DNA of 64,000 nucleotides from Rhodocyclaceae bacterium (GTDB lineage: Bacteria > Pseudomonadota > Gammaproteobacteria > Burkholderiales > Rhodocyclaceae), in the NCBI GenBank assembly GCA_016721505.1, contig JADKHX010000002.1, positions 37,126 to 101,125 of the forward strand. Direction: 5' to 3'. Of this stretch, positions 45,668 through 64,000 are shown piece after piece (positions within the stretch are counted from its first letter, which is position 1; each line of letters begins with the position of its first letter). Made by a program: the position numbers and the translations under genes. The notes below the pieces were generated by a model. That model ran no database searches. It was not told where the DNA came from and was given only the letters and a program-made list of their open reading frames with translations.

Positions 45668-47473
<1,806 letters not shown>

Positions 47474-47881: not shown

Positions 47882-47908
47882 CGCCCACCTTGGTGGGCGT
47901 TTCCCCTT
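47882..47908 (+). terminator. hairpin plus T-rich tail after nirM (partial terminator/attenuator)
   Basis: CGCCCACC-TT-GGTGGGCG followed by TTTCCCCTT. Confidence 0.55.
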
Positions 47909-47972
47909 ATCTTGTGGGCACTCCTCTGCGCAAAGCGTCACTCAATCGCGATCACTCGGGTTTGCGACACCT

Positions 47973-48302: not shown

Positions 48303-49480
48303 TGCGAAGCTTGGCCTATCTCTTTCTCTGCTGTGTGCTGGTGCTAGTGCTCGGCGCTTGTACGACGCTATCGACACTGCGCGGAACGGGCGATTTGGGT
48401 GTGGTGATCGAACGTGCCGATGGCGCAGTAACGCTGGTTAATACCTCCGCCAAAGCGCCTTATGCACGGGTCGACGGTTTGGGCGACCTGTCGCACGCCT
48501 CGGTAGTTTTCTCGCGCGATGCGCGCTATGCCTTTGTCTTCGGTCGCGATGGTGGCTTGTCGAAAATTGATCTGCTGGAATCGCGGCTGGTGAAGCGGGT
48601 GATGCAATCAGGCAATGCCATCGGCGGTTCAATATCACAAGATGGCCGCATCGTCGTCGCGCAAAACTATGTGCCGGGCGGCATCAAAGCATTCGACGCC
48701 GAAACCCTGGAGCTATTGTCGGAAGTGCCCGCCGAATATGCACCGGGAAAATTCTCCAAAGTGGTCGGTCTGGCGGATACCTCCGGCAACCGGTTTGCTT
48801 ACGCCTTGTTCGATGCGGGTGAAATATGGGTCAGCGATTTCAGCGACCCGAAACATCCAACGACCAAGAAATTCCCGGCCGGAAAGAATCCCTACGATGG
48901 CCTGATTACGCCCGACGGTCGCTACTACCTGGCGGGGCTATTTGGCGAAGACGGAATTGCCAAGCTTGACCTGTGGCAGACGGAAAAAGGCAGCAGCAAG
49001 ATTCTGGAAAACTACGGACGTGGCGAGGAGAAGCTGCCAGTTTTCAAGATGCCGCATTTACGCGGCTGGTCGCTCGCTGCCGGGCGCGCTTGGTTGCCTG
49101 CAATCGGGCGACATGAAGTACTGGTCGCCGATGCGCGGACGTGGAACGAAGTCGCTCGTGTGCAAGTTAAAGGCCAGCCAGTGTTTGTGATGGCTAGCCC
49201 GGACGGGCGACAAGTCTGGGTCAACTTTGCCCATCCGGACAATGGCTGGGTACAGGTGATCGATACGCTGAGCGGACAAGTGATCAAAACGCTACAACCG
49301 GGCAAAGCGGTTTTGCATATGGAGTTCACGCCGCGCGGCGAAGCGGTATGGATCTCAGCACGTGACGACAACCGCGTGGTGATTTATGACACGCGCAGCT
49401 TCGAGCAAATCGGCGGTTTCGATGTCAAAGCACCTTCGGGGATTTTCTTCACCACGCGCGCTGCGCGGATAGGCTTTTAG
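48302..49480 (+). CDS. nirF: heme d1 biosynthesis protein NirF (lipoprotein)
   Basis: ATG 48302 overlaps the nirC stop. LGAC lipobox. cd1-like propeller without a heme c site. Confidence 0.88.
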   Translation: MRSLAYLFLCCVLVLVLGACTTLSTLRGTGDLGVVIERADGAVTLVNTSAKAPYARVDGLGDLSHASVVFSRDARYAFVFGRDGGLSKIDLLESRLVKRVMQSGNAIGGSISQDGRIVVAQNYVPGGIKAFDAETLELLSEVPAEYAPGKFSKVVGLADTSGNRFAYALFDAGEIWVSDFSDPKHPTTKKFPAGKNPYDGLITPDGRYYLAGLFGEDGIAKLDLWQTEKGSSKILENYGRGEEKLPVFKMPHLRGWSLAAGRAWLPAIGRHEVLVADARTWNEVARVQVKGQPVFVMASPDGRQVWVNFAHPDNGWVQVIDTLSGQVIKTLQPGKAVLHMEFTPRGEAVWISARDDNRVVIYDTRSFEQIGGFDVKAPSGIFFTTRAARIGF

Positions 49481-49491
49481 GGCGAACCGCA

Positions 49492-50469
49492 ATGGACTCA
49501 CCTTACAGCCCGTTGGAATTTTCATTGTTAAACGACTGGCAGCGTGATTTTCCGCTGGTGTCGAATCCGTTCGCGGAGATTGCGGCGTCAGTTGGTGCTG
49601 ACGACACGCTGTCAGATAAGGTTCTAAGTACGTTGAACCGCTTGGTGGCGCGCGGCGCAATCAGCCGCATCGGAGCCGTGTTTGCGCCGCGTCGGGTAGG
49701 CATCGGCGCACTCGCCGCGGTCGCTGCACCTGCTGAAAAAATCGAAGCGATTGCGGCACAAATTAACGCGCACGCCACGGTCAATCACAACTACCAGCGC
49801 GAACATCTTTACAACCTCTGGTTCGTCGTCACGGCGCCCGACAAAGCCGCCTTGGACGCGACCCTAACGCAGATAGAAATGGAAACCGGCTGCACAGTTA
49901 TTTCCATGCCATTGGCCGAAGAGTTTCATATTGATTTGGCATTCGACATGCAGTCGGGACATAGCCCGATTCAGCACCAGCGTTCCTGCGCGGCTATCAC
50001 TCGAGACCTGGATACCGACGAGCGTCGGCTGGCAGCGCAATTGCAAGATGGCTTGACGCTTTGCGCCACGCCCTACGCAGAACTTGGGCAGCGCGCCGGC
50101 ATGAGCGAAGCGCAAGTGCTCAATCATTTGCGACGCTGGCAAGACGAGGGATTGATCAAGCGTTTTGGCATTGTCGTGCGACATCACGAAATGGGTTATC
50201 GCTCAAATGCGATGGTGGTGTTTGATATTGCTGACGACAACGCATCCACCATTGGCACGGCCTTGGCTAGCGTGCCGGGCGTGACTTTGTGTTATCGGCG
50301 CGAGCGTTGCCTGCCGGCGTGGCCGCACAATATTTACTGCATGGTGCATGGTCGAAGTCGCGATGAAGTCTTCCCGATTGTCGAACGTTTGGCGGCCATC
50401 GCCGGTATTAAGCCGACGGTGTTGTTCTCCGTGCGACGTTTCAAACAATGTGGTGCAAGATATTTCTGA
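49492..50469 (+). CDS. nirD: fused NirD-NirL siroheme decarboxylase subunits
   Basis: 325 aa with two tandem AsnC/Lrp-like modules (LNDWQRDFPL... and ERRLAAQLQDGLTL...). Confidence 0.85.
   Translation: MDSPYSPLEFSLLNDWQRDFPLVSNPFAEIAASVGADDTLSDKVLSTLNRLVARGAISRIGAVFAPRRVGIGALAAVAAPAEKIEAIAAQINAHATVNHNYQREHLYNLWFVVTAPDKAALDATLTQIEMETGCTVISMPLAEEFHIDLAFDMQSGHSPIQHQRSCAAITRDLDTDERRLAAQLQDGLTLCATPYAELGQRAGMSEAQVLNHLRRWQDEGLIKRFGIVVRHHEMGYRSNAMVVFDIADDNASTIGTALASVPGVTLCYRRERCLPAWPHNIYCMVHGRSRDEVFPIVERLAAIAGIKPTVLFSVRRFKQCGARYF
49586..49613 (-). repeat. 27-nt motif copy inside nirDL
   Basis: CGTCAGTTGGTGCTGACGACACGCTGTC, read as SVGADDTLS. Confidence 0.7.
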
Positions 50470-50957
50470 TGAATGCCATGCGCGCCTCAACTGATGCTTC
50501 GATTCGCCCGTCACCAGATGAAATGGATCGCGCCATCATTAACAAAATGCAAGGCGATTTCCCTTTGCTTGACGAGCCGTATCGCGCCGTTGCCGACAGC
50601 TTGGGAATCAGCGAAAGCGAATTACTTGGACGCTTGCAAGGCATGCTTGATAAGCGAATATTGACCCGCTTCGGGCCGATGTTTCAAGTTGAACGCATGG
50701 GTGGCGCTTTTGTGCTCGCGGCGATGACAGTGCCGGAAGAACGATTTGATGAAGTCGCCACGCAAGTCAATTCATTGGCCGAAGTGGCGCACAACTACCG
50801 CCGCGAACATGCGATGAATATGTGGTTCGTGTTGGCCACAGAGACTCGCGCCGGGATTGCCGAGGTCATCGCGCGAATAGAAGCGATGACGGCATTGCCG
50901 GTGTTTGCTTTTCCGAAAGAGCGTGAGTATTTCGTCGAGATGAAACTCCATGCTTGA
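50469..50957 (+). CDS. nirG: siroheme decarboxylase subunit NirG
   Basis: ATG 50469 overlaps the nirDL stop. Has the MDRAIINKMQGDFPL module. Confidence 0.85.
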   Translation: MNAMRASTDASIRPSPDEMDRAIINKMQGDFPLLDEPYRAVADSLGISESELLGRLQGMLDKRILTRFGPMFQVERMGGAFVLAAMTVPEERFDEVATQVNSLAEVAHNYRREHAMNMWFVLATETRAGIAEVIARIEAMTALPVFAFPKEREYFVEMKLHA

Positions 50958-51552
50958 GATGGCTCATAACAGAGGCGAAACAGGGAATTCGCAAAGCACT
51001 GCTTTGCGCCTGTGTAGCGGGTCGGCTGTACTAAGCCGACACTGCACGTCAGCACCAACTGGCAAATTCGGGCTAGACGAACGCGACCTCGATCGCGAAA
51101 TCATTCTCGCCACGCAAGGCGGCTTGCCGCTGGTATCACGTCCCTATCATTTCATCGCCGAGCAACTTGGGGTCGATGCAGGGCAAGTGCAATCACGGCT
51201 TGCCGCCATGCTGGCCGATGGTCGCATTCGCCGCATCGGTGCAGTGCCGAATCACTACGCCATCGGCTACACGGCCAACGGCATGAGTGTCTGGGATGTT
51301 GAAGATGCCCTGATCGACGAATTAGGCGCGCAAGTCGGTGCGCTAAGTTTTGTGACGCATTGCTATCGACGTCCGCGCCGTTTGCCAGCGTGGCCTTACA
51401 ACTTGTTTGCGATGGTGCACGGCGCTACGCGGGATGAGGTGCAAGCCGATGTCACAAAAATTGCTGCCTTGTTAGGTGACGCTTGCCGTGGCCACGACGT
51501 TCTCTATAGCAGCCGGATACTGAAGAAAACCGGACTGCGTATCGGGGGTTAA
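50950..51552 (+). CDS. nirH: siroheme decarboxylase subunit NirH (5' end runs through a repeat element)
   Basis: The conserved NirH sequence begins about LDERDLDREIILATQGGLPLVSRPY (from ~51073). The only in-frame ATGs (50950, 50959) lie upstream of the 95-nt repeat copy C, which stays open in frame. Confidence 0.8.
   Translation: MLEMAHNRGETGNSQSTALRLCSGSAVLSRHCTSAPTGKFGLDERDLDREIILATQGGLPLVSRPYHFIAEQLGVDAGQVQSRLAAMLADGRIRRIGAVPNHYAIGYTANGMSVWDVEDALIDELGAQVGALSFVTHCYRRPRRLPAWPYNLFAMVHGATRDEVQADVTKIAALLGDACRGHDVLYSSRILKKTGLRIGG
50968..51062 (+). repeat. 95-nt long-form repeat element, copy C
   Basis: AACAGAGGCGAAACAGGGAATTCGCAAAGCACTGCTTTGCGCC...GTCAGCACCAACTGG. Contains the perfect palindrome CGCAAAGCA-C-TGCTTTGCG and the hairpin GTCGGC-(8 nt)-GCCGAC. 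Confidence 0.8.
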
Positions 51553-51635
51553 TCCGCGCCACAAAGAATTGGCCGTGCCGCCTTGCGGCAACTGGCGATT
51601 ACTACAGTCAGTCTTGCTAGAGCAAGCTTGATTCG

Positions 51636-51649
51636 TTGACCTAGATCAA
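51636..51649. promoter_or_regulatory. FNR/Dnr-like box upstream of the embedded regulator
   Basis: TTGAC-CTAG-ATCAA, about 100 nt upstream of ATG 51745. Confidence 0.6.
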
Positions 51650-51744
51650 CAACCCTAAGACTCATCGCGATGATCATGGCTTGCCTAAAGTCGCAACGTC
51701 GCTCGGCTTGACCATTTCTTGTCGGCCAACAGGAGTCACTATTG

Positions 51745-53220
51745 ATGAATTCCTTCGCAGATTTTCCAGCCAACGATGCCAGCATTTTTTTGGCGCAAGT
51801 TGATTTTTTCGCCTGCGCTGACCCCCAAACTTTCATTCAAATTACCCGCAACGCACAGACACGAAAATTCCAAGCTGACCAAGTGGTTTGTAGTGTGGGT
51901 GATCAGCCGAGAACGCTTTTCGTTGTGCTCTCCGGGTTGATCAAGCGTGCCTTGCTTGCCGAGTGCGGACATGAGAGTGTGGCCGATCTAATCACGCCTG
52001 GGCGATATTTTGGCGACACCGAACTTTTTTCACAACGCCCGTTCGGGATTAGCGCCGTTGCTGTCGAACCAACAGAAGTGCTGTGCATTGACGGGGAAAG
52101 TATTCGCAAAGCAGTCGAACAGGATTCACGTTGGGCGAGCCACCTTATTTCATTGATGGCGCGCGGCAGACTTAGTAGCGACGCTGAACGCGCCATCGCG
52201 CCAACACGGTCGAGCTGCGAACGCGTGCTCGATTATCTGCTCGACTTAGCGGAAAAGAGCCACGCGGAAGGATGGGGAACAACCGTCAGATTGATGACCA
52301 CCAAACAGTTGATCGCTGCGCGAATCGGATTGACACCAGAGACCTTTTCTCGCGCCCTGCGGCAGCTTTCTGACGAGGGGAAAATCCTCGTTGATGGACG
52401 TCACGTGACATTGCGTGAAATGCTTATCGAAAGCTGGCCATCATCGAAGGCCGCCACGCAATCGGTCCGCCCTTCTCTCGATGTAGGGCGTATCGAAATT
52501 TACGAAAGTCCAACGCTTAACACCATCAACATCGCTGGCAGGCAGCGCATGTTGTCGCAGCGGATGAGCAAGTTCTGGCTAATGATTCAGCACGGCATCA
52601 CAGTGCGGCATGCACAAAATAAGTTGCAGCAAGCCATGGCTGAATTTGAGCTGCAAATGATTCACCTGCATAACTTAACGGCCAACGACAAAATCGCGCA
52701 GTCGCTCAAAGTCTTGGACGACATGTGGCGTGTGTTCCGTATGCAGTTGCTGCAGGCAGATGCCGGCGACACCGATAAAGTTTTATCCCAGGGTGAACAG
52801 GTGATGCGGGCCGCCAATGAGTTAACCGCGAAATATGTCGCTTTCGTCAACGACGCAAGCGCGCAATTGGTCAACCTGGCCGGGCGTCAAAGAATGCTGT
52901 CGCAACACATTGCCAAGCTTTATGTGCTGCAGCATTCAGGTGCGGTCAGCCGTGAGGCCGACTCAAAATTGCATGCAGCACGACAGGAATTTTCCAAGGC
53001 CCTGCTTGAGTTGCTACGCTCAGCAAACAACCATCCTGTCCTAAAGCGACAGTTGCGCCTTGTTTCCAGTCAATGGTCGGCCATGAGCAAAGGCTTGGAC
53101 GACCCGTCCCAAACCAATGCGGCGCGGAGTGCAAGCCAAATTTCTTTGGCAAGTGAGCGTGTAGTAAAGCAGCTAGACAACGTGGTTGTTTTCTATTCGA
53201 CGTTGAAAAAGGTCGCTTGA
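51745..53220 (+). CDS. Crp/Fnr-type regulator fused to two C-terminal PilJ/NarX-P-box-like four-helix sensor modules
   Basis: cNMP-like barrel (FVVLSGLIK...YFGDTELF) and an HTH with E--SR (PETFSRALRQL). These are followed by two ~110-aa repeats, each opening with N(I/L)AGRQRMLSQ(R/H). I see no hydrophobic segment anywhere. AGGAG RBS 9 nt before the ATG. Confidence 0.75.
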   Translation: MNSFADFPANDASIFLAQVDFFACADPQTFIQITRNAQTRKFQADQVVCSVGDQPRTLFVVLSGLIKRALLAECGHESVADLITPGRYFGDTELFSQRPFGISAVAVEPTEVLCIDGESIRKAVEQDSRWASHLISLMARGRLSSDAERAIAPTRSSCERVLDYLLDLAEKSHAEGWGTTVRLMTTKQLIAARIGLTPETFSRALRQLSDEGKILVDGRHVTLREMLIESWPSSKAATQSVRPSLDVGRIEIYESPTLNTINIAGRQRMLSQRMSKFWLMIQHGITVRHAQNKLQQAMAEFELQMIHLHNLTANDKIAQSLKVLDDMWRVFRMQLLQADAGDTDKVLSQGEQVMRAANELTAKYVAFVNDASAQLVNLAGRQRMLSQHIAKLYVLQHSGAVSREADSKLHAARQEFSKALLELLRSANNHPVLKRQLRLVSSQWSAMSKGLDDPSQTNAARSASQISLASERVVKQLDNVVVFYSTLKKVA

Positions 53221-53321
53221 GACTGAAATCCACTAACTCTTTGCGCCAAAAGTAGTAAGGGTATTCCGGCAGTCACTGACCCGCTGAAGTCGTTTGGCCG
53301 AAAACTCCCATAGGCCTGCAC

Positions 53322-53335
53322 TTGATATCAGTCAA
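53322..53335. promoter_or_regulatory. FNR/Dnr-like box upstream of nirJ
   Basis: TTGAT-ATCA-GTCAA. It overlaps the first ATG offered by the ORF track. Confidence 0.6.
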
Positions 53336-53370
53336 TGCGCGCCCCTAACAGTTTGGGGTCCAATGACCCC

Positions 53371-54528
53371 ATGTTCCGAATATCTCAATACATGCAGGAA
53401 ATTTTGGCGCCAACGCCGCTCGGGCCGGTGCGAAAACCACCCGCGCCGGTCGTCATCTGGAATTTAATCCGGCGTTGCAATCTGACTTGCAAACATTGCT
53501 ATTCCATTTCTGCCGACAAAGATTTTGCAGGTGAATTGTCGACGCAAGAAATCTTCTCGGTGATGGATGATCTCAAAGCTTTTCGCGTACCGGCGCTGAT
53601 ATTGTCTGGCGGCGAACCCTTATTGCGGCCTGACATTTACGACATCGCGCGACGGAGCAAGGCGATGGGTTTTTATACCGCCTTGTCCTCGAATGGCACG
53701 CTCATTGATGCAGCGGTCTGCGCCAAAATCGGCGAGATCGGCTTCGATTATGTTGGCATCAGCCTCGATGGTCTGGGTGCAACCCACGACAAGTTTCGCC
53801 GCATGGTGGGCGCCTTTGATAAATCGCTCGCCGCGATTCGGCTGTGCCACGCAGCAGGGATGAAGGTCGGTGTGCGTTACACGATGACGCAAGACAATGC
53901 GCACGACCTTCCCGGTTTGCTAAAACTGATTGAAGACGAAGGCATAGACCGCTTTTATTTCTCACATCTGAATTACGCCGGTCGCGGCAACGTCAACCGC
54001 AAGACCGACGCGCAACATCAAAAAACGCGGCAGGCGATGGACCTTTTGTTCGACACTTGTCTGGACTATCAACAACGCGGTGTGTTCAAGGAATTCACCA
54101 CCGGCAACAACGATGCCGACGGGGTTTATCTGCTGCACTGGGTAGCGCGACGCTTCCCCGAACGGCTCGAACACATCCGGCAAAAATTGCTGCAGTGGGG
54201 CGGCAATTCCAGCGGCGTTAATGTTGCCAATATCGATAACTTGGGCAACGTGCATCCCGACACCATGTGGTGGCATCACAACTTGGGCAATGTACGCAAT
54301 CGACCATTCAGCGAAATCTGGATGGACACTTCCGACCCGCTAATGGCTGGCTTGAAAGCAAAACCGCGCCAAGTCGGCGGGCGTTGTGGTGAGTGCGCGC
54401 ACTTCGCTATTTGCGGCGGCAACACCCGCGTTCGCGCGCAACAAACCAGCGGCAACGCGTGGGCAGAAGACCCGGGGTGTTATTTGACTGATGCGGAAAT
54501 CGGACTTGAAACGTGCGCCACGGTTTAG
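53371..54528 (+). CDS. nirJ: radical SAM heme d1 biosynthesis protein
   Basis: CNLTCKHCY (CxxxCxxC). Start taken at MFRISQYM (ATG 53371), matching the conserved NirJ N-terminus. Confidence 0.9.
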   Translation: MFRISQYMQEILAPTPLGPVRKPPAPVVIWNLIRRCNLTCKHCYSISADKDFAGELSTQEIFSVMDDLKAFRVPALILSGGEPLLRPDIYDIARRSKAMGFYTALSSNGTLIDAAVCAKIGEIGFDYVGISLDGLGATHDKFRRMVGAFDKSLAAIRLCHAAGMKVGVRYTMTQDNAHDLPGLLKLIEDEGIDRFYFSHLNYAGRGNVNRKTDAQHQKTRQAMDLLFDTCLDYQQRGVFKEFTTGNNDADGVYLLHWVARRFPERLEHIRQKLLQWGGNSSGVNVANIDNLGNVHPDTMWWHHNLGNVRNRPFSEIWMDTSDPLMAGLKAKPRQVGGRCGECAHFAICGGNTRVRAQQTSGNAWAEDPGCYLTDAEIGLETCATV

Positions 54529-56135
54529 CGAAAGATTTTGCGAAAAACTGCTTCGCGTGGATCTTGTGTTTGCTCAGCGTCACCGCCTCGCCCGGCCACG
54601 CCGCTGACGCCGCAGCGCTGTATCAACAACACTGTGCTGCTTGCCATGGCAGCGACAGAATCGGCGCGATGGGACCAGCACTGTTGCCGGAAAGTTTGGA
54701 GCGCCTGAAAAAAGCTGAAGCCCTGAAAGTCATCCGCGATGGCCGGGCAGCGACACAAATGCTGGGCTTTGCTGATCGATTGTCGGCGGAAGAAATCACG
54801 CAAGTCGGTGAGTATATTTTGGCCGGGGCCAAACGGGGAATCCGCCAAGCATTCTTGGCAGCGCCTGTAACCAGAGCACCAACTCACACAGAAGCAAATA
54901 TTCGCGCCTCACGTATTGTTCATTTCAGCAACCTGCCTGCCACACCGTCGCCGATTTTCGCCAGGCGCGACATGATTAATTTGTTTTTGGTGGTCGAGGC
55001 GGGTGACCATCACGTCAGCATTTTGGATGGCGACAAGTTGGAAGTCATTCATCGCTTCGCCAGTCGCTATGCATTGCATGGCGGACCAAAATTCACGGCC
55101 GACGGACGCTATGTTTTTTTCGCTTCGCGCGATGGCTGGGTGAGCAAATTTGATATCTGGAATTTGAAGACGGTCGCCGAAATCCGCGTCGCATTGAACA
55201 CGCGCAATGTTGCGGTGTCGGAGGATGGCAAATGGGTCATCGCCGCGAATTACTTGCCGGGCAATCTGGTTCTGCTCGATGGTGATTTGAATCTAGTCAA
55301 AGTGATCGCCGCCACAACGCTGGATGGCAGCAAGTCGTCGCGCGTTTCAGCCGTGTATGACGCCGCACCGCGCAAGAGCTTTGTCGCGGCACTCAAAGAC
55401 ATCCCGGAGATTTGGGAAATTTCTTACGACCCGACGATCGAACCGATCTACAACGGCATGGTGCATGACTACAAGATGGGCGAAGGCATCGCGATTCCCG
55501 GATTTCACAACCCGCGCCGCACCACGCTCGAAAGCCCCCTGGACGACTTTTTCTTTGATGCCTCCTACGCGCATGTGATGGGGGCAAGCCGGGCGGGTCG
55601 CGGCCAGGTCGTGCATCTGGATGTCAGAAAGAAAATTGCTGATTTGGATATTCCCGGTATGCCACATCTGGGTTCCGGCATCACCTGGACGCGCGACGGT
55701 CGTACCGTGATGGCCAGCCCGAATCTGAAAGATGGTGTGGTCAGCGTGGTGACTATGGACGACTGGAAAGTGATCAAGCAGATCCCCACCTTGGGGCCAG
55801 GTTTCTTTATGCGTAGTCACAGCAACACACCCTATGCGTGGGTAGATTCGATGATGAGCCCAGCCAAGAACACGCTGCAGATCATCGACAAACAGACGCT
55901 GGAAAAGGTGGCCGAGGTCAGCACCGAGCCCGGCAAAACTTTGGCGCACGTTGAGTTCGACCGCTATGGCAAATATGTGCTGGCCAGCCTGTGGGAACGC
56001 AAACAGGATGGCGGCGCAATCATCGTTTACGACGCCAAAACGTTCAAAGAAATCAAACGTATTCCCATGGATAAGCCAGTGGGCAAATACAACCTCTACA
56101 ACAAGATTACCCGCTCGGAAGGCACGTCTCACTGA
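54513..56135 (+). CDS. nirN: NirN (cytochrome c plus cd1-like propeller; dihydro-heme d1 dehydrogenase)
   Basis: 540 aa. Signal peptide and CAACHG, then a cd1-type propeller. GTG start overlapping nirJ. Confidence 0.88.
   Translation: MRHGLAKDFAKNCFAWILCLLSVTASPGHAADAAALYQQHCAACHGSDRIGAMGPALLPESLERLKKAEALKVIRDGRAATQMLGFADRLSAEEITQVGEYILAGAKRGIRQAFLAAPVTRAPTHTEANIRASRIVHFSNLPATPSPIFARRDMINLFLVVEAGDHHVSILDGDKLEVIHRFASRYALHGGPKFTADGRYVFFASRDGWVSKFDIWNLKTVAEIRVALNTRNVAVSEDGKWVIAANYLPGNLVLLDGDLNLVKVIAATTLDGSKSSRVSAVYDAAPRKSFVAALKDIPEIWEISYDPTIEPIYNGMVHDYKMGEGIAIPGFHNPRRTTLESPLDDFFFDASYAHVMGASRAGRGQVVHLDVRKKIADLDIPGMPHLGSGITWTRDGRTVMASPNLKDGVVSVVTMDDWKVIKQIPTLGPGFFMRSHSNTPYAWVDSMMSPAKNTLQIIDKQTLEKVAEVSTEPGKTLAHVEFDRYGKYVLASLWERKQDGGAIIVYDAKTFKEIKRIPMDKPVGKYNLYNKITRSEGTSH
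54872..54885 (+). repeat. degenerate core motif copy in the nirN interdomain linker
   Basis: CAGAGCACCAACTC, read as TRAPTH. Confidence 0.35.
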
Positions 56136-57319
56136 TGTCATTACTGACCATAAAAGATCCGGTGCCAACCAAACCAGCACAGACGTTTGCGCTGTTCGCG
56201 CTGGGCTTTCGGCCTTTCTATTTGCTCGCCGCGTCATTCACCGCCATGGCGCTTCCGGTGTGGATGCTGGTGTTATCGGGCGTGGTGTCCTTGCCCTTGC
56301 CGGGAATTTTTTGGCACGCGCATGAAATGATTTTTGGCTTTGCGGCTGCCGTCATCGTCGGCTTTTTATTCACTGCCGGCCGCAACTGGACAGGGCTACC
56401 CACCCCAACCGGCGGGCCGCTCGCGGCGCTCGCGGGCCTGTGGTTGCTCGGGCGCATCGGCATGGCATGGAGTGGTGGCGTTGTCGCCGCGCTGATTGAT
56501 TGGGCGTTCCTGCCCGCTGCTGCAATCGCTCTGGCCTTAGTGTTGATCAAGGCCGATAGTCGGCGCAACTATTTCATCATCGTATTACTGAGCGTATTGG
56601 CACTGGCCAACGCGGCCTTTCACCTTGCGCGTCTGGACGCCATCACGCTCGACCCCTTGCGCCCATTGTGGTTCGCGCTGGGCTTGATCACGGTGTTGGA
56701 AACTGTCATCGGTGGTCGGGTGATTCCGATGTTCACCGCGTCGGCATTGCGCGGTGTGAAGCAGTGGCAGCATCGACAGTTTGAACTCAGCGCCATCGCC
56801 TTGACAGCCATCGCGCTGCTGCTGTGGGTGTTGGATTTGAGCGCGATTGGCGCGCCACTGGCGGCGCTTGCCGCTGTCATGCAACTTGTCCGCTGCATCG
56901 GCTGGAACCCATGGGCGGCGCGGCGCTCACCTTTGCTGTGGATTCTGCACCTCGCTCATCTGTGGATTCCCACCGGCCTCGCGCTATTGGCTCTGGTGCA
57001 ATGGGGCGTATTGCCGCGTTCGGCGGCGGTGCATGCGCTGGCCATTGGCGCCACCGGCGGCTTGATTATCGGCATGATCACCCGCACCGCGCTGGGTCAC
57101 ACAGGTCGCATGCTGGTGGCCGGCAAGATTGAGATCACCGCCTATGTTCTGGTACAACTGGCCGCCGTTTCGCGCGTGCTGACGATTATTGCCTTCCCCA
57201 GTTTGATCCTCGGCGGCACGCACCTCGCCGCGACCTTGTGGGCCATCGCTTTCGGTCTGTATTTCATTCGCTATCTGCCGTGGTTAGCCAGCTCGCGTCC
57301 TGACGGTCGTCCGGGATAA
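56135..57319 (+). CDS. nnrS: NnrS family membrane protein
   Basis: 394 aa, about 12 TM, His-rich N-terminal helices (FWHAHEMIFGF). ATG overlaps the nirN stop. Confidence 0.85.
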   Translation: MSLLTIKDPVPTKPAQTFALFALGFRPFYLLAASFTAMALPVWMLVLSGVVSLPLPGIFWHAHEMIFGFAAAVIVGFLFTAGRNWTGLPTPTGGPLAALAGLWLLGRIGMAWSGGVVAALIDWAFLPAAAIALALVLIKADSRRNYFIIVLLSVLALANAAFHLARLDAITLDPLRPLWFALGLITVLETVIGGRVIPMFTASALRGVKQWQHRQFELSAIALTAIALLLWVLDLSAIGAPLAALAAVMQLVRCIGWNPWAARRSPLLWILHLAHLWIPTGLALLALVQWGVLPRSAAVHALAIGATGGLIIGMITRTALGHTGRMLVAGKIEITAYVLVQLAAVSRVLTIIAFPSLILGGTHLAATLWAIAFGLYFIRYLPWLASSRPDGRPG

Positions 57320-57408: not shown

Positions 57409-57801
57409 ATGAAGACCATCACCAAGATCAACCCGCCCGGCACCGAGGCGATTTACAAAGCTTACAAATTCTCGCAGGCCATGGTCTGCGACGGCATCGT
57501 CGAAGTCTCGGGCCAGGTCGGTCTGGCTGCTGATTCCACTGTTCCCGAGGACATCAGCGAGCAGGCCCGCAACGCGTTCACCAACTTGAGGCATGTGCTC
57601 GAAGCTGCGGGCTCCGACCTGCGCCACGTCCTGCACCTCACCCAATATCTGACCAATATCGAGGACGCCCGCGCCGTCACTAAAGTGTTCGCGGAATTCT
57701 TTCCCAGCGACTACCCGGCCTGCACCGTCGTGCAGGTGGTCGCGCTGGTGCTGCCACAGCTGAAGATTGAAATTCAGGCCAGGGCGGTCGTTAAAGACTG
57801 A
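57409..57801 (+). CDS. RidA/YjgF family protein
   Basis: 130 aa. Size and C-terminal pattern (LKIEIQARAVV) are typical of the family. Confidence 0.7.
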   Translation: MKTITKINPPGTEAIYKAYKFSQAMVCDGIVEVSGQVGLAADSTVPEDISEQARNAFTNLRHVLEAAGSDLRHVLHLTQYLTNIEDARAVTKVFAEFFPSDYPACTVVQVVALVLPQLKIEIQARAVVKD

Positions 57802-57843: not shown

Positions 57844-58947
57844 TTAGAAATTGTGCCGGATTCCCGCGCCGACCAGTTTGGCAGTCGCGCCAGGGGTGGG
57901 ACGATTGAAAGTATCGGCGCTGAACTGTGTCGTGTCGTCGTTTAGCGTCAGGTTGTAGCCCGCATATAGCAGTGTTCGTTTGCTCAGGGCGTGTTCGACA
58001 ATAAGCCCCATCGAGGTCGAATCGGCCTGATCGAGATTGTGGTCGTGCAGGTGCGAGACTTGGATGCCGATGCTGTCGATTTCGCTCAAATGGTATTGCA
58101 GACCGAGGTTAGATTGATCAAAGGTGCGTTTGTTTGAACCGCCGACGATAGCACCACCGCTACGCTCAGTGCGCACAAAAATGCCGGCAATCTTGACCCG
58201 ATCCAAGGTCCACGATAACGCGGCCGAACTATCGTGGATTGCGATCGGTGGGGCGTTCCCCAAATGCTGGGTCAGTTGGGTTCCGGCAAAAAAAGCAAGC
58301 TGCTCACCGTGGTAGTAAGTGGCAATCAGCGTGGCGCGTTCCTGATTGCTGGCGTAGGTCTTGTCGTCCCCGCCATAAGGTGCAAAAGCATAGACGACGA
58401 AGTGTTGCCAGCCGCCGAGTACGGGCGACATGTAGCGCACGGCGTTGCTGAAGTGCGTCGGGTCGGCGCGGCTGTTGAGCGGCGTCGGCAGCAGAACCAG
58501 CAAGCCGCTGAAGACACTGCCGCCGACGGGATCAAAATACTGCATGATTTTGACCGGGCTGCTCATCCGGCCGGCCGTCACCGTGCCGTAGTCGCCACTT
58601 ATGCCGACATAACCCTGACGTGACAGCGTCCGACTACCAAAACTCGGCGCGCCGATGCCGGAATTCTGATCCACCGCCAGACCGTATTCCAGCCGGGCAA
58701 TCGCGTTGAGACCAGGCGAGATCGCTTCCTGAATCCGCCAGCCAATGACGCTGGCGTCGTGGCACCCGGACTCGATGCCGGAGCGCTTACTGCCCGACCC
58801 GTTGGTCGAATGCATTGCACAGACATCAACAGTTCCGTACATCGCGCTGCTGCCCTGAGCGCCAGCATTGCCGGCCAGGAACATGCTGGCCAGACAGATA
58901 GCCAAACCGGTGGTAAGTCCTCGACCGGGCAAGGTAAATGTCATCAT
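57844..58947 (-). CDS. Gram-negative general porin
   Basis: Start at ATG 58947 gives the signal peptide MMTFTL...NAGAQG. Alternating beta-strand pattern and C-terminal ...GIRHNF. Confidence 0.85.
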   Translation of the reverse strand: MMTFTLPGRGLTTGLAICLASMFLAGNAGAQGSSAMYGTVDVCAMHSTNGSGSKRSGIESGCHDASVIGWRIQEAISPGLNAIARLEYGLAVDQNSGIGAPSFGSRTLSRQGYVGISGDYGTVTAGRMSSPVKIMQYFDPVGGSVFSGLLVLLPTPLNSRADPTHFSNAVRYMSPVLGGWQHFVVYAFAPYGGDDKTYASNQERATLIATYYHGEQLAFFAGTQLTQHLGNAPPIAIHDSSAALSWTLDRVKIAGIFVRTERSGGAIVGGSNKRTFDQSNLGLQYHLSEIDSIGIQVSHLHDHNLDQADSTSMGLIVEHALSKRTLLYAGYNLTLNDDTTQFSADTFNRPTPGATAKLVGAGIRHNF

Positions 58948-59188
58948 CAATCCAAGAAAAGTGGCATTGGAACTACCGGGACATGAGTTCGAACACAGAC
59001 GGCTGACCATGATTGACGCATCGTACTGCGCTGCCGAAATAAGGACATGATTAAGATCAATCATCCACGACATCGTGTCGGGTCTTTATCAGATTCGCTG
59101 GCTCAGCACCTCGGGCAGCCGAAATAAACAGCGCCGCCATCTTGTAGGTTTTTTGTGCCGCGCATGCGCGCCGCCGGCGTTTTGAAAA

Positions 59189-59202
59189 TTGACCGCAGTC
59201 AA
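59189..59202. promoter_or_regulatory. Dnr/NNR-type box upstream of the second oxidase operon
   Basis: TTGAC-CGCA-GTCAA, a symmetric sequence about 100 nt upstream of ATG 59304. Confidence 0.6.
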
Positions 59203-59303
59203 GGCATTTGGTGAACGCCGCGCCTAGCATCAGGTCGTGTGGAGCTTGGATCAGCCAAGCGCCAAATCCTGTCACTGAGCAAGCCACCTGAGGAGAACAT
59301 CCC

Positions 59304-59456
59304 ATGAATGAAAACGAAACCGATGCCCCCGTGCCCTTCATGCAACAGCTTTTGGACAACCCGTTTCTGTTGTTGTTCCTGGGCGTGATGATTCCGATGG
59401 TGGTCTACAGCCTGTGGGGCGTGATCGACATTTTGACCATTCCCGTCGCCAAATAG
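59304..59456 (+). CDS. small single-TM protein, first gene of the second oxidase operon
   Basis: Below the track's cutoff. GAGGAG RBS 7 nt upstream. Translation is MNENETDAPVPFMQQLLDNPFLLLFLGVMIPMVVYSLWGVIDILTIPVAK*. Confidence 0.6.
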   Translation: MNENETDAPVPFMQQLLDNPFLLLFLGVMIPMVVYSLWGVIDILTIPVAK

Positions 59457-59480
59457 TTACGCCTTCAGAGAGGAAAAAAT

Positions 59481-60020
59481 ATGAGCGCAATTCTCCCGCC
59501 CGCAGAACGACTTTGGTGGAAACATCCCCTCGACCGCGTCGAAGGCACCTGGATCGTGATCGCCTTTATCTGGTGCATGATCATGTTCGCCATGATGGTC
59601 GGCTGGCACATTTACGGTAAGCAAAATCTCTCCACCGAAACCTACAAAACCACGCCGGAACTGTTCAGCAAGAAGGCACAGGATGTGGTCGACAAGTACA
59701 CGGTGCGCAAAGAGACCGATAAGGAAATTCCGGTGGTACATCCGCCTCCAGGCAGTGATGTCTATCTCGTTGCACGGCTATGGGATTGGTGGCCGATCAT
59801 CGAACTGGAAAAAGACAAAACCTATAAGCTCCATTTGACCTCGATGGACTTCAACCACGGCTTTTCACTGCAGCCGGTGAACATCAACATTCAAGTCGTG
59901 CCGGGTTACGAGCATGTGGTCAAAGTGACACCGAATCAGTCGGGTACTTTTTCCATCGTCTGCAACGAATTCTGCGGCATCGGCCACGCCAATATGGCCG
60001 GCCGAATTTACGTTAAGTGA
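59481..60020 (+). CDS. heme-copper oxidase subunit II, one TM plus cupredoxin with a complete CuA site
   Basis: 179 aa. H-x34-CNEFCGIGHANM fits H...CxExCx3Hx2M exactly. Confidence 0.88.
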   Translation: MSAILPPAERLWWKHPLDRVEGTWIVIAFIWCMIMFAMMVGWHIYGKQNLSTETYKTTPELFSKKAQDVVDKYTVRKETDKEIPVVHPPPGSDVYLVARLWDWWPIIELEKDKTYKLHLTSMDFNHGFSLQPVNINIQVVPGYEHVVKVTPNQSGTFSIVCNEFCGIGHANMAGRIYVK

Positions 60021-60107
60021 GGGAGTTGATCGTGAAACTACGCGCCAACAATGATCCGATTTATTTCGGCCAAAACCCACAAGCCCTTGTAGCCCACCCA
60101 TCCCCTG

Positions 60108-60127
60108 CCCTTCCCTCGAGGGAAGGG
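60108..60127. repeat. perfect 20-nt palindrome between subunits II and I
   Basis: CCCTTCCCTCGAGGGAAGGG, checked base by base. Confidence 0.9.
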
Positions 60128-60186
60128 AGTTCTTCGGCTCGCTCCGCTCGAACCTTACGGGGTGGTTTGCAAATGGAGATTTCACT

Positions 60187-61884
60187 ATGAGCACAACCTA
60201 TCGAACCTGTCCGCGTTCCGGACTGCAATTTGAGGCACAGGCCGAGCGCCTGATGTTGGTCAACGCTGTTGCCGCTGTCGTATTTTTGTTAGTGGGTGGC
60301 ATCCTTGCTGTCGGTGTGGTGCTCACCCGCTGGCCGGCTGTGCATTGGCTGTCAGCCGATGCGTTTTACATGGTGCTGACCGCACACGGCATCGACATGC
60401 TGATCTTCTGGATCATCTTCTTCGAGATGGCGGTGCTGTATTTCTGTTCATCAACGCTACTGCGTTGTCGAATCGCCACGCCGCGAATGGCATGGCTCGG
60501 TTTCGCGCTGATGCTGATCGGCGCGGTCACCAACAACGTCGCCGTGTTCCGTGGCAGCTCCAGCGTGATGATGACTTCCTACGTGCCGATGATGGCCGAG
60601 CCGGCGTTTTATCTGGGTCTGATTTTGTTCGCCGTCGGCGCATTGATCGGATGTTTCGTTTTCCTTGGCACGCTGGTCGTTGCCAAGCGCGAAAAGACTT
60701 ATCAAGGCTCGATTCCGCTGGTGACTTTTGGCGCGGTGACGGCGACCATCATCGCGGTGTTCACCATCACTTCCGGCGCGATCATTTTGATCCCGACTTT
60801 CTTGATGTCGGTTGGTGTCATCAACCAAGTTGACCCCTTGGTGTACCGCACTATTTGGTGGGCCTTCGGTCACTCGTCGCAGCAGATCAACGTCGCTGCG
60901 CACATCTCGATCTGGTACGCCATCGCCGCAATTTGCTTCGGTGCCAAGCCAATGTCCGAGCGGGTCAGTCGCGGTGCCTTCCTGCTCTACATTTTGTTTT
61001 TGCAACTCGCCAGCGCGCACCATTTGCTGGCCGATCCGGGCATGAGCACGGAATGGAAAGTGGTCAACACCAGTTACTTCATGTACTTCGCCGTGTTGGC
61101 CTCAATGATTCACGGCCTGACCATTCCCGGCGCTATCGAAGTCGCGCAACGTGAAAAGGGTTACACCAAAGGTCTGTTCGAGTGGCTGCGCAAAGCACCA
61201 TGGGGCAATCCGGTTTTCTCCGGCATGTTCATTTCGCTAATCGGTTTCGGCTTCCTCGGCGGGATCTCCGGCGTGATGATGGGAACGGAACAACTGAACA
61301 TGTTGATCCACAACACCATCTACGTTCCCGGCCACTTCCACGCCACGGTTGTCGTCGGCACCACGCTGTCGTTCATGGCGCTGACCTATTTCCTGATTCC
61401 GGTCTTGTTCAAGCGCGAAATGATCAACCCCGGCCTGGCCAAATTGCAGCCGTATATGTTCGGTCTGTCGATGTACTTCTTCTGTCTGGTGATGATGGGC
61501 GCCGGCACGCTGGGCGTATCGCGGCGGCATTGGGATATGGCCATGGGCGGCTCGCCACTGGCCTATGAATTCCCCGGCGCGGCTTACTTGATGATGGGCT
61601 TGGTCGGCATCGCTGGCATCGCCGCGATTCTTGGCGGCGCGATCTACATCTACATCACCGTCGGCTCACTGTTGTGGGGCAAGAAACTGGATGCCGGTGT
61701 ACAAACTACACAGACGATTCCGTTGCCAAAAACTCCGATGCCAAACGTCGTTGTTCAAAGTCACGGCTCAGCAGGCTTCGCCGCACCGGGCACCTTTGCC
61801 TTGGCCATGGTGTTCCTGATTTCCTTCGTCCTGTACTACTTCATCAATTGGAAGTATTTGTCGCAGGTCTGGGGTTTGAGTTAA
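60187..61884 (+). CDS. heme-copper oxidase subunit I, B-family-like, lacking the cross-link Tyr (candidate NO reductase, sNOR/eNOR-like)
   Basis: 565 aa. Heme His in LTAHGIDM. CuB His in WWAFGHSSQQ, with Gln where Tyr is expected at +4. HH in ASAHHLL and HFH in VPGHFHAT. GGAGA RBS. Confidence 0.85.
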   Translation: MSTTYRTCPRSGLQFEAQAERLMLVNAVAAVVFLLVGGILAVGVVLTRWPAVHWLSADAFYMVLTAHGIDMLIFWIIFFEMAVLYFCSSTLLRCRIATPRMAWLGFALMLIGAVTNNVAVFRGSSSVMMTSYVPMMAEPAFYLGLILFAVGALIGCFVFLGTLVVAKREKTYQGSIPLVTFGAVTATIIAVFTITSGAIILIPTFLMSVGVINQVDPLVYRTIWWAFGHSSQQINVAAHISIWYAIAAICFGAKPMSERVSRGAFLLYILFLQLASAHHLLADPGMSTEWKVVNTSYFMYFAVLASMIHGLTIPGAIEVAQREKGYTKGLFEWLRKAPWGNPVFSGMFISLIGFGFLGGISGVMMGTEQLNMLIHNTIYVPGHFHATVVVGTTLSFMALTYFLIPVLFKREMINPGLAKLQPYMFGLSMYFFCLVMMGAGTLGVSRRHWDMAMGGSPLAYEFPGAAYLMMGLVGIAGIAAILGGAIYIYITVGSLLWGKKLDAGVQTTQTIPLPKTPMPNVVVQSHGSAGFAAPGTFALAMVFLISFVLYYFINWKYLSQVWGLS

Positions 61885-61894
61885 TCGCGACAGC

Positions 61895-62824
61895 ATGCCG
61901 GGAAATGCGTTCAGGAGTCATGCCGACATGAATCAGGCTCAAATCGCCAGTCGCGGGTTCACAAAAACCGCACGCGACGTGCTGAGCCTGTTCAAGCTGC
62001 GCATCGGCTTCATCATCATGCTCACCGCTTTGGCAGGCTATGCGATCACGCCGGGCGGCAATATCGGTGCGCTTCAACTCACGGTGCTTGCGCTCGCCGT
62101 TTTGGTTTCGTCAGCCAGCGCCGGTGCCTTCAATCAATACATCGAATGTGAGGAAGACAAGCTGATGGCGCGCACCCGCACGCGGGCGTTTGTCACCGGT
62201 GCTTTGCCGCACACACCGGCGTGGCTGGTGCTGATTGTGGCGATGCTGGTCGGCTCTGTCGCGGCGGCGTGGTATGTGAGCAATGCCGCAGCGGCGTTCT
62301 ACACTTTCCTCGGCGCGTTCTTCTACGCCATCGTTTATACGGTTTGGCTAAAGCGTCGCAGTTGGCTGAACATCGTTGTCGGCGGCCTCGCGGGTAGCTT
62401 CGCCGTGCTCGCCGGTGCGGCGGCGGTCAATCCGGTTTTAGGTGCAGAGCCAGTATTGCTGGCGCTGGTTTTGTTCCTGTGGACGCCACCACATTTTTGG
62501 AGCCTGGCAATCGCCAATCGTGCCGAATACGCCGCTGCCAATGTTCCGATGTTGCCTGTTGTGGTTGGCGATGTGCGCGCCGCGCAAATCGTTTTTTACA
62601 GCACCGTTGCCTTGGTTTTGGTTTCGCTGATTGCGCCGATCATTGCCAACGCACCAATCCACTTTGCCGGTGCGCTGATCGGCGGCGGATACTTCCTGCG
62701 CAAGTCCTGGCAGCTGGCACAAAACCCGAATCGCAAAACCGCAATGGCCTCGTTCTTCGCCTCATTGCTGCAACTTTCGCTGCTGCTGGTTGCAGCCATG
62801 GTGGACGTCTGGGTATTGCGATGA
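61895..62824 (+). CDS. ctaB: protoheme IX farnesyltransferase, second copy
   Basis: 309 aa UbiA-type protein, paralogous to 13526..14422 (shared [12 protein letters not shown]). An alternative start is ATG 61928. Confidence 0.88.
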   Translation: MPGNAFRSHADMNQAQIASRGFTKTARDVLSLFKLRIGFIIMLTALAGYAITPGGNIGALQLTVLALAVLVSSASAGAFNQYIECEEDKLMARTRTRAFVTGALPHTPAWLVLIVAMLVGSVAAAWYVSNAAAAFYTFLGAFFYAIVYTVWLKRRSWLNIVVGGLAGSFAVLAGAAAVNPVLGAEPVLLALVLFLWTPPHFWSLAIANRAEYAAANVPMLPVVVGDVRAAQIVFYSTVALVLVSLIAPIIANAPIHFAGALIGGGYFLRKSWQLAQNPNRKTAMASFFASLLQLSLLLVAAMVDVWVLR

Positions 62825-63669
62825 AAGCTCGTCGCCTGTTGGTCGGGCGTTTGGTCGTGCTATGGCTGGCGATGTGCAGCGGCTCCACCCTCGCGCAGGA
62901 CACCAACACCGCAGCAGCAAGTTCCCCCGGCCTTGACCAAAACCTCGCGCTGAAACTCAGCCACGAAGCACTTGGCCGCACCATCGGCGAACATGCCCTG
63001 CTCGACCGCGAAGGTCGCCCGGTCCGCCTTGCTGATTTTCGTGGCAAGCCGCTGCTGGTGAGCTTTATCTACACCGGCTGTTTTCAAGTCTGCCCCGCCA
63101 CTACCAAGCTGTTGCAAAAGGCTGTACGCGACGCGCAGGAAACTTTGGGCACCAACAATTTCCGCGTCATCAGCATCGGCTTCAATCAGCCCGCCGACTC
63201 ACCGCAAGCGCTCAAATCCTATGCACGGCAATACGGCATCACCGAACCCAATTGGGAATTCTTGAGCCCCTCCGCCGCCAGCGTGGCCGATCTCGCGCGC
63301 GACTTTGGCTTCAGTTACGTCCCGACCGCCGCCGGTTTTGATCACGTCCTGCAAGTCACCGTGGTCGACGCCGACAGCAAGATTTACCGTCAGGTTTATG
63401 GCGACCAATTCACGCCCGAGCAGCTCACCGAACCATTGCGCCAACTGATCAACCGTGCGCCAATCAGCGACACCACCAACTTCGCCGATCTGGTCGAACG
63501 TGTGCGCATCCTTTGCTCGGTGTACGACCCGCTCACCGGCAAATACAAAGTCAGTTACGGCCTCGCATTTGAAATCGCTGGTGGTGTGACTTTTTTGATT
63601 TGGATACTTTGGTTTTTCGGCAACGAATGGTGGACGCGGCGGCGGCACACACGTCAGTTGCGCGCCTGA
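62821..63669 (+). CDS. SCO1/SenC copper chaperone, second copy, with C-terminal TM
   Basis: ATG 62821 overlaps the ctaB stop (ATGA). Signal peptide and CFQVCPATT CxxxC motif. The longer track ORF is read-through. Confidence 0.88.
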   Translation: MKARRLLVGRLVVLWLAMCSGSTLAQDTNTAAASSPGLDQNLALKLSHEALGRTIGEHALLDREGRPVRLADFRGKPLLVSFIYTGCFQVCPATTKLLQKAVRDAQETLGTNNFRVISIGFNQPADSPQALKSYARQYGITEPNWEFLSPSAASVADLARDFGFSYVPTAAGFDHVLQVTVVDADSKIYRQVYGDQFTPEQLTEPLRQLINRAPISDTTNFADLVERVRILCSVYDPLTGKYKVSYGLAFEIAGGVTFLIWILWFFGNEWWTRRRHTRQLRA

Positions 63670-64000
63670 TGAGTTCGATATCTGCCGACACGGCGTGTGG
63701 TCAGCACCAACTGGCGAGTGAAAGCCTCGGCAGCAAAATCTGCCGCAAGCTCGATCACCAGTTCGATACCGTTTTCGGCGCAGCGGCCAACCCGTGGCGA
63801 CACCTCGGCGCGCTTGGCTTTCTATTCCTCTGGATCGTCGTTGTCAGTGGCATCTACGTCTACATCATGTTCGACACCTCAGTTGCCGGCGCCTACGAAT
63901 CGATTGAATCGCTATCGCGCGAACAACCGCTGTTCGGCGGCCTGTTGCGCAGCCTGCATCGCTACGCATCGGACGCGTTCCTGATCGTCACGCTGTTGCA
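63669..64000 (+). CDS. cytochrome b-like membrane protein (partial; continues past the right edge)
   Basis: Not in the track because it is edge-truncated. ATG 63669 overlaps the SCO1 stop. My translation is MSSISADTACGQHQLASESLGSKICRKLDHQFDTVFGAAANPWRHLGALGFLFLWIVVVSGIYVYIMFD...SLHRYASDAFLIVTLL. Confidence 0.6.
   Translation, partial: MSSISADTACGQHQLASESLGSKICRKLDHQFDTVFGAAANPWRHLGALGFLFLWIVVVSGIYVYIMFDTSVAGAYESIESLSREQPLFGGLLRSLHRYASDAFLIVTLL
63690..63716 (+). repeat. 27-nt motif copy at the 5' end of the cytochrome b-like gene
   Basis: ACGGCGTGTGGTCAGCACCAACTGGCG, identical to the reverse complement of 15045..15071. Confidence 0.75.

Follow-up and report, generated by a model that had tools for sequence, protein, structure and literature searches.

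An operon beside the nir genes of a Rhodocyclaceae bacterium that probably encodes an eNOR-type nitric oxide reductase

What reaction is catalysed by a heme-copper enzyme that carries a CuA site and no cross-link tyrosine? The question is raised by an operon at the end of a 64,000-nucleotide (nt) stretch of DNA, here called the window, from a Rhodocyclaceae bacterium (assembly GCA_016721505.1, contig JADKHX010000002.1, positions 37,126 to 101,125). A preliminary description of the window had proposed that the product of this operon, a tyrosine-less relative of the B-family oxidases, is the nitric oxide (NO)-reducing partner of the nitrite reductase NirS, and had left the sub-family unnamed. 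Our analysis supports the proposal through Gln233 of the catalytic subunit, a distance tree and the identity to a published family member, and gives the sub-family a name: with a probability of roughly 0.8, this is an eNOR-type nitric oxide reductase (NOR) operon, most likely the NO-reducing step of denitrification beside the nir genes. The gene content, the metal ligands, the family placement, the conserved synteny and a recurring regulatory box that we describe below were observed directly. The eNOR family and this operon layout have both been described already, and ours is a correct identification, not a new find.

Subunit I contains the motifs AHGIDM, WWAFGHSSQQ, SAHH and GHFH. When it is aligned to the Thermus ba3 oxidase, all six histidine ligands are found in place, H67, H229, H278, H279, H383 and H385 corresponding to H72, H233, H282, H283, H384 and H386. 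By this alignment H67 and H385 ligate the low-spin heme, H383 the high-spin heme, and H229, H278 and H279 the non-heme metal. The position of the cross-link tyrosine, Tyr237 in ba3, is occupied by Gln233, the motif reading GHSSQQ and not GHPxVY, and this glutamine is invariant in 33 diverse relatives. The alignment confirms the heme ligands, the three CuB histidines and the glutamine that had been read off by eye. The residue at this position is Tyr in the oxygen reductases, Glu in cNOR and qNOR, Asn in sNOR and Gln in eNOR (PMC8756737, Table A4).

Family placement points the same way. Subunit I is 47% identical (E 2e-101) to WP_015717644.1 from Thermus, which serves as an eNOR sequence in PMC8756737, and its active-site motif is aligned with FGHGAQQ of that protein. 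We placed it in a neighbour-joining distance tree of 36 sequences with 200 bootstraps, in which the Rhodothermus marinus enzyme discussed below was not included. All 13 glutamine-bearing sequences form one clade, which has as its sister a group with a GH-x2-QY motif (the QY group) and lies far from ba3; the window protein falls outside the tyrosine-bearing B-family, a position inside which would, by the preliminary description, have counted against the proposal.

Membership of the other NOR families, and of the B-family oxygen reductases, was considered and rejected on the ligands. The B-family oxygen reductases have a tyrosine four residues after the first CuB histidine, which subunit I does not. 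nNOR combines a His/Met low-spin heme with a cNOR-like active site, and the low-spin ligands here are H67 and H385. In gNOR one active-site histidine is replaced by Asp and the CuA ligands are missing; here there are three histidines and a full CuA motif. The C-family-related cNOR and qNOR have an active-site Glu and a cytochrome c subunit or a quinol site, and we find Gln, CuA and no norC in the window. Closest in outline is sNOR, the norSY-senC-orf1 type known from ammonia oxidisers, which is likewise B-related, CuA-containing and tyrosine-less and has a SenC/SCO1 gene in its cluster, although Murali et al. place it in a clade of its own. The Asn of sNOR is Gln233 here, and the serine equivalent to S309 of ba3, which is kept in eNORs with a K-type channel and lost in sNOR (Murali et al.), is present as S306. 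Moreover, the window protein groups with published eNOR sequences, and the chance that it is an sNOR is close to negligible.

The fold is that of a B-family enzyme. Among proteins of solved structure, subunit I is closest to the B-family oxidases of Aquifex (7DEG) and Thermus (ba3), with E-values of about 1e-45. An AlphaFold2 model of subunit I (predicted local distance difference test score, pLDDT, 79; predicted template modelling score 0.83) has 13 helices, and its best structural matches are B-family oxidases with template modelling scores of 0.75-0.80; there was no NOR among its 50 best structural matches. Subunit I scores below every NCBIfam equivalog cutoff, and hence carries a generic database name. 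Residues lining the K-type channel of ba3 are largely retained, Y244, S257, S306 and T312 of the window protein matching Y248, S261, S309 and T315, and S306 is invariant among diverse relatives. Further differences from ba3 are the replacement of its Val236 by Gln and of its Trp239 by Asn.

Biochemistry for the family comes from the eNOR of R. marinus DSM 4252, its only characterised member, which was isolated and reduced NO, and did not reduce oxygen (O2) with several electron donors (PMC11214002). It is from the activity measured there that we infer NO reduction by the window enzyme. That study gives as traits of the family a relation to the B-family, CuA in subunit II, a Gln that replaces the cross-link Tyr, a channel of the K type and an association with nir genes, and all of these recur in the window. 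A difference concerns the hemes: both heme sites of the R. marinus enzyme hold heme As, and CtaA is encoded in many eNOR operons (PMC11214002), whereas the window operon has ctaB without ctaA.

Several points weigh against the assignment. Bootstrap support for the glutamine clade is moderate (67% of 200) in what is a simple distance tree of 36 sequences. The link to the characterised Rhodothermus eNOR is by family membership only, and that enzyme was not among the named top matches when the Thermus homologue served as the search query. The eNORs studied so far carry A-type hemes, yet the window has ctaB and no ctaA. The comparison of active site and channel with ba3 bore out all six histidines and four channel residues, but two further channel residues are not kept, T312 of ba3 being replaced by H309 and Y244 of ba3 by I240. 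Y297, at the place of ba3 V300 in helix VIII, is a tyrosine that is invariant only in the eNOR clade. Finally, another NOR may lie outside the 64 kb, and the enzyme described here may not be the main NOR of the organism.

Y297 bears on the possibility that the operon encodes a functional O2 reductase of the B-family type, a high-affinity enzyme for microoxic growth in which Y297 or Y268 takes over from the missing tyrosine. Y268 lies 10 residues before the HH motif and had been noticed early on as a conceivable compensating residue. It is invariant in the eNOR clade and equally so in the QY sister group, which retains the canonical tyrosine, and Y268 was therefore rejected as a migrated cross-link tyrosine. 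Nor was any migrated tyrosine found in models of these families (Murali et al., PMC11214002). The kinship of subunit I with the ba3 oxidases, its closest solved relatives, and the retention of the CuA site and the K-type channel would suit an O2 reductase, as would Y297, and the FNR-type box described below would fit a low-oxygen oxidase too. Set against them are a cross-link position that is Gln throughout the 33 diverse members, the lack of O2 reduction by the R. marinus enzyme with several donors and the proximity of the operon to nirS, here and in other lineages. We regard an O2 reductase as very unlikely.

Beyond the glutamine, six residues of subunit I do not vary among diverse members of the eNOR clade and are not found in B-family oxidases: E80, Q232, N235, N294, Y297 and H309. 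N294 and Y297 are specific to the glutamine clade, and E80, Q232, N235 and H309 are common to the QY group too. Full-length representatives as a whole fall into three groups, the glutamine-bearing GH-x2-QQ proteins, which include one from a haloarchaeon, the tyrosine-retaining GH-x2-QY proteins, and the ordinary B-family with GHPxVY. In the tree no group stands closer to the eNOR clade than the GH-x2-QY group (P0127, P0132, P0134 and P0153, the named members coming from metagenome-assembled genomes (MAGs) of Hodarchaeales and Thermoproteota), which looks intermediate between the B-family oxidases and eNOR.

The genes of the operon and their surroundings are listed in Table 1. Gene content and coordinates are as first described, from the small transmembrane protein to the cytochrome b-like open reading frame (ORF), and the operon ctaB is the second copy of that gene in the window. 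Tight coupling of the genes is less general than had been thought: overlapping start and stop codons occur at two of the five junctions, ctaB/SCO1 (ATGA) and SCO1/cytochrome b (TGATG), and not at most of them, the remaining gaps measuring 24, 166 and 10 nt.

Table 1. Features of the window discussed in the text (positions refer to the window).
Feature	Position	Strand	Remarks
A-family aa3 oxidase cluster	12931-22341		First full heme-copper operon in the window
Paralogue of the His-His-less heme-copper-like protein (47% identity)	14575-15924	+	449 amino acids (aa); opposite strand within the aa3 cluster
cd1 nitrite reductase cluster	44546-57319	+	From Pfam scans; five further Dnr/FNR boxes inside
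RidA gene	57409-57801		Between nnrS and the operon
Porin gene, divergent	57844-59073	minus	Between nnrS and the operon
Dnr/FNR-type palindromic box TTGAC-CGCA-GTCAA (TTGACCGCAGTCAA)	59189-59202	.	102 nt before the first ATG
Candidate -10 hexamer TAGCAT	59225-59230	+	Read by eye
Small ORF with one transmembrane helix	59304-59456	+	50 aa; ribosome-binding site GAGGAG; gene position as ba3 subunit IIa
Subunit II, eNOR-type	59481-60020	+	179 aa; PF00116; one transmembrane helix and a cupredoxin domain with CuA site
Spacer between subunits II and I	60021-60186	+	166 nt; perfect 20-nt palindrome CCCTTCCCTCGAGGGAAGGG at 60108-60127
Catalytic subunit I, eNOR-type	60187-61884	+	565 aa; PF00115, 215 bits
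Heme O synthase (CtaB/CyoE)	61895-62824	+	TIGR01473, 256 bits (cutoff 210)
SCO1/SenC copper chaperone	62821-63669	+	PF02630, 54 bits; signal-anchor N-terminus
Cytochrome b-like ORF	63669-64000	+	First 110 codons, cut by the window end; own Pfam match weak (22 bits)

Subunit II has a complete CuA motif, H126-x34-C-N-E-F-C-G-I-G-H-A-N-M172, which satisfies H-x34-C-x-E-x-C-x3-H-x2-M. Among solved structures it is closest to ba3 subunit II (E 1.6e-16), and the CuA ligands of the two align. The 50-aa peptide encoded ahead of it has no Pfam or NCBIfam match; in Defluviimonas, Thermus and Thermomicrobium the gene for subunit II is likewise preceded by a homologue of it, with 40-58% identity. The peptide is like ba3 subunit IIa in gene position and topology, with no clear similarity in sequence. 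The truncated cytochrome b-like ORF is 66% identical to a full-length orthologue in a related locus (L002), and its orthologues carry PF00033. The spacer between subunits II and I is longer here than in any of 80 relatives, where it measures 9-90 nt. A 57-aa ORF at 60017-60190 was rejected as a gene, having no family match and being present in none of the 80 relatives (0/80). Nor does the spacer appear to be an RNA element or a repeat, since it has no Rfam match, its fold energy is ordinary (z = -0.69) and the palindrome occurs once in the window.

Relatives of subunit I are abundant. A word-indexed protein search returned at least 8000 proteins at E <= 1e-10, the best of them 93% identical, a scan of GTDB species genomes gave at least 588 confirmed relatives, and a library of 50%-identity representatives gave 1417 proteins at E <= 0.001. 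Glutamine-bearing homologues also occur in plasmid records, from Defluviimonas (62.5% identity), from Thermus megaplasmids (45-48%, next to nirS) and from Thermomicrobium roseum (43%). Across the 80 closest loci, over which synteny was counted, the operon is well conserved, with the small peptide present in 78, subunit II in all 80, ctaB in 75, SCO1 in 71 and the cytochrome b gene in 68. nir genes lie within 8 kb in about 9-13 of the 80, and stand beside the operon in Thermus. At least 12 relatives have a divergent CtaA/COX15 gene just upstream of the eNOR operon, at the place taken by the porin gene in the window (for example L004, L011, L022, L023, L028 and L031, and further L048, L054, L055, L061 and L066); in T. 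roseum, CtaA is fused to CtaB downstream of eNOR (L083, 7832-9634).

The symmetric box that had been placed about 100 nt ahead of the operon is indeed there (Table 1). Six matches to its pattern, TTGAYN4RTCAA, occur in the window against 0.32 expected, starting at 45170, 45537, 45630, 51636, 53322 and 59189. All lie in the nir/eNOR region, ahead of nir genes, of a regulator gene and of the operon, and their clustering marks what would be a local Dnr/FNR regulon. The exact box stands within 350 nt upstream of the operon in 19 of 78 related loci. With up to one mismatch and within 300 nt it is found in 40 of the 78, compared with 2 of 310 control windows. A scan for sigma-70 promoters upstream of the operon found no full -35/-10 promoter, as would be expected if the promoter is activator-dependent. 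The candidate -10 hexamer TAGCAT would centre the box at -41.5, which is the geometry of a class II activator. One of the other boxes, at 53322-53335, runs right up to the earliest possible start codon of nirJ, and the called nirJ start is therefore probably too early.

A full cd1 nitrite reductase cluster lies upstream of the operon. The window has a G+C content of 54%, and the protein of its 449-aa ORF (Table 1) matches MBP6278528.1, from a Rhodocyclaceae MAG, with 100% identity. The nir cluster encodes a Crp/Dnr-type regulator, nirS, two c-type cytochromes, nirF, nirDL, nirGH, a Crp-PilJ regulator, nirJ, nirN and nnrS. The operon had been said to follow directly after nnrS; in fact the RidA gene and the divergent porin gene intervene. 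The two small c-type cytochromes (CxxCH; NirM- and NirC-like) are encoded between nirS and nirF on the forward strand (47528-47848 and about 47970-48302), and are candidate electron donors to NirS and to the CuA site of eNOR. As the preliminary description stated, no norCB is visible: norB, norC, norZ and ccoN were absent from all large ORFs scanned in the 64-kb window. It was equally right in calling this the second heme-copper oxidase operon. The earlier one, the aa3 cluster, contains coxB, coxA, ctaG, coxC, SURF1, a PA0111-family protein, ctaB and SCO1, and a Rhodocyclaceae MAG (GCA_016718525.1, L087) has the same layout. ctaA/cox15 is absent from the aa3 cluster and from the whole window.

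The second regulator of the nir cluster is a protein of 492 aa (51742-53220, forward strand) in which a Crp/FNR-type domain binding cyclic nucleotide monophosphates and a helix-turn-helix are joined to two PilJ-type domains, each with an AGRQRMLSQ motif; the box at 51636 stands ahead of it. PilJ domains are usually periplasmic sensor domains, and this architecture is unusual for a DNA-binding protein.

The Thermus eNOR homologues share with the window the GH-x2-QQ motif, the core of small peptide, subunit II and subunit I, and the adjacent nirS. They differ in having Lys for the second low-spin heme histidine, a His/Lys pair within the glutamine clade, and in having no ctaB, SCO1 or cytochrome b gene after the core, and an Rrf2 regulator instead. 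Lys as a low-spin heme ligand has been noted in some eNORs (PMC11214002). On megaplasmid pTF24b of Thermus thermophilus TF24 (L081, 1796-9140) an eNOR-type core lies beside nirS and a radical SAM gene, and its subunit I is annotated as a ba3 oxidase. The ba3 oxidase of T. thermophilus itself (1EHK, 1XME) resembles the window enzyme in its fold, six histidines, CuA site and IIa-II-I gene layout; it is an oxygen reductase, however, and its identity to subunit I is about 31% at most. In Magnetospirillum magnetotacticum MS-1, the gene order mcaII-mcaI-hosA is said to have been reported by Tanimura and Fukumori in 2000. The genes for subunits II and I are followed there by one for heme O synthase, as here, and the protein lacks cytochrome c oxidase activity, the likeness being one by description. 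This 'cytochrome a1-like hemoprotein' was classed as an eNOR by Murali et al., who also reported eNOR in Accumulibacter and in Gallionellaceae KS.

The same operon has been described in Ferrigenium straubiae KS, where the genes for eNOR II and eNOR I are accompanied by those for heme O synthase and sco1, one for a 'scaffold protein' and a pair of cytochrome b fusion genes (10.64898/2026.01.22.701106). The same study detected four of the operon products in the proteome of denitrifying cultures, where the most abundant heme-copper oxidoreductase transcripts were those of eNOR I and II. This is a betaproteobacterial operon like that of the window, with cytochrome b-FeS-FAD-NADH and cytochrome b-FeS fusions (FAD, flavin adenine dinucleotide; NAD(H), nicotinamide adenine dinucleotide), although Ferrigenium belongs to the Gallionellaceae and the window to the Rhodocyclaceae. 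Of the two orders in which the fusions occur among relatives, Ferrigenium appears to have the other one. They are 'rather unusual' in the words of the preprint, whereas in our data 68 of the 80 closest loci have them.

Indeed, the window ends where this part of the cluster begins. In relatives, the product of the cytochrome b gene is a fusion in which a cytochrome b N-terminal domain is joined to 2x[4Fe-4S] and to an FlpD/MvhD-like domain. The cluster has three further genes, which encode a protein of about 165 aa without a family match, a heme-copper-like one of about 450 aa, and a cytochrome b-[2Fe-2S]-FAD-NAD fusion, the soluble part of which resembles BenC-type oxygenase reductases. Over 86 loci, each cytochrome b fusion was counted in 68, the 165-aa protein in 63 and the heme-copper-like gene in 60, and most of the loci without these genes are too short downstream to show them. 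The module comes in two gene orders (an example is L002, 11533-17066). The truncated gene of the window is closer to the FlpD-type fusion (66% identity) than to the FNR-type fusion (49%).

The heme-copper-like protein is a true member of the heme-copper superfamily. Profile comparison with the eNOR alignment gave a probability of 99.8% (E 1.7e-29), and its model (pLDDT 85) has a 12-helix heme-copper oxidase fold. It keeps H63, H211, H338 and H340 and a Gln equivalent to Q232 of eNOR, and its His-His pair is replaced by Leu-Pro. A paralogue is encoded within the window, in the aa3 cluster (Table 1). This 449-aa protein likewise keeps the heme ligands and one CuB histidine and has lost the His-His pair; it matches PF00115 weakly and has no NCBIfam match. 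The gene occupies the usual place of ctaA in an aa3 cluster, and does so in another Rhodocyclaceae genome with the same layout. The family has more than 6000 members under generic database names. In six contexts that we compared, its neighbours are always heme-copper biogenesis genes (SCO1, TlpA-like, ctaB, SURF1, DUF1318 and sometimes CtaA), the two cytochrome b fusions, or both, and in L089 and L090 the module occurs without nearby eNOR genes in the locus shown.

Two roles proposed for the paralogue were rejected. It is not a hidden NorB, having no His-His pair, no adjacent NorC and no NCBIfam match. Nor do the paralogue and the cytochrome b fusions simply replace heme A synthase, as L092 and L093 have CtaA together with the paralogue, and the relatives noted above have it next to the eNOR operon. 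The paralogue could be a scaffold, or serve in cofactor maturation, or be an electron module.

The fusions also suggest another way in which the operon might be used, namely as an NO-detoxifying sink fed with cytoplasmic NAD(P)H through the cytochrome b-FeS/flavin fusions, and not as an energy-conserving respiratory enzyme fed by cytochrome c. Both fusions, one BenC-like with 2Fe-2S/FAD/NAD and one with 2x[4Fe-4S] and FlpD, follow the operon in about 60 relatives, and the window operon starts the same module with its truncated cytochrome b ORF. The Ferrigenium preprint goes as far as to propose a complex of the fusions with eNOR, but with electrons flowing in the opposite direction, to NAD+ (10.64898/2026.01.22.701106). 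The same fusions are found, however, without adjacent eNOR genes, next to the paralogue that lacks the His-His pair, and CuA subunits are normally fed by soluble periplasmic carriers, of which the nir cluster offers candidates in its two c-type cytochromes. A sink of this kind seems unlikely to us, if less so than an O2 reductase. A broader idea, which we put forward tentatively and hold to be doubtful, is that the eNOR genes make up only the leading half of a conserved cluster of some 10 genes, the rear half of which may be an uncharacterised membrane redox module on which eNOR, and perhaps aa3, depends, delivering cytoplasmic electrons or maturing heme and copper cofactors when O2 is scarce.

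Returning to the operon as one for an eNOR-type NO reductase, we propose the following mechanism. At low O2 and in the presence of NO, an activator of the Crp/Dnr family would bind the box ahead of the operon and turn on a class II promoter; either of the two Crp/Dnr-family regulators in the neighbouring nir cluster could supply it. The core of the enzyme would consist of the small one-helix peptide, subunit II and subunit I. Periplasmic carriers, possibly the cytochromes encoded next to nirS, would deliver electrons to CuA in subunit II, from where they would pass to the bis-histidine low-spin heme (H67/H385) and on to the active site, formed by the high-spin heme on H383 and the non-heme metal on H229, H278 and H279. 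Two NO molecules would there be reduced to N2O. Four-electron reduction of O2 is not expected, because Gln233 takes the place of the redox-active cross-linked tyrosine. Protons would probably be drawn from the cytoplasm through a ba3-like K-type channel (Y244, S257, S306 and T312, with H309 standing in for Thr), and the NO-reducing step would as a result be electrogenic. The co-transcribed heme O synthase would provide the farnesylated heme precursor, and SCO1 the copper of the CuA site.

The identification matters for how such genomes are read. Denitrifiers with eNOR alone get scored as lacking an NO reductase or as having an extra oxidase, and the correct call makes this Rhodocyclaceae genome that of a denitrifier with nirS plus a NOR, and of an N2O producer. 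More than 588 species have close relatives, and the identification thus strengthens the case for eNOR being very common among Burkholderiales-type bacteria of water and sludge. Of the loose ends, the conserved module downstream, with its paralogue in the aa3 cluster, interests us most; the conserved cytochrome b fusions, together with the paralogue lacking the His-His pair, offer a concrete target in the search for the supply of electrons or cofactors to eNOR. If the K-type channel works, NO reduction in this organism conserves energy, unlike that by cNOR.

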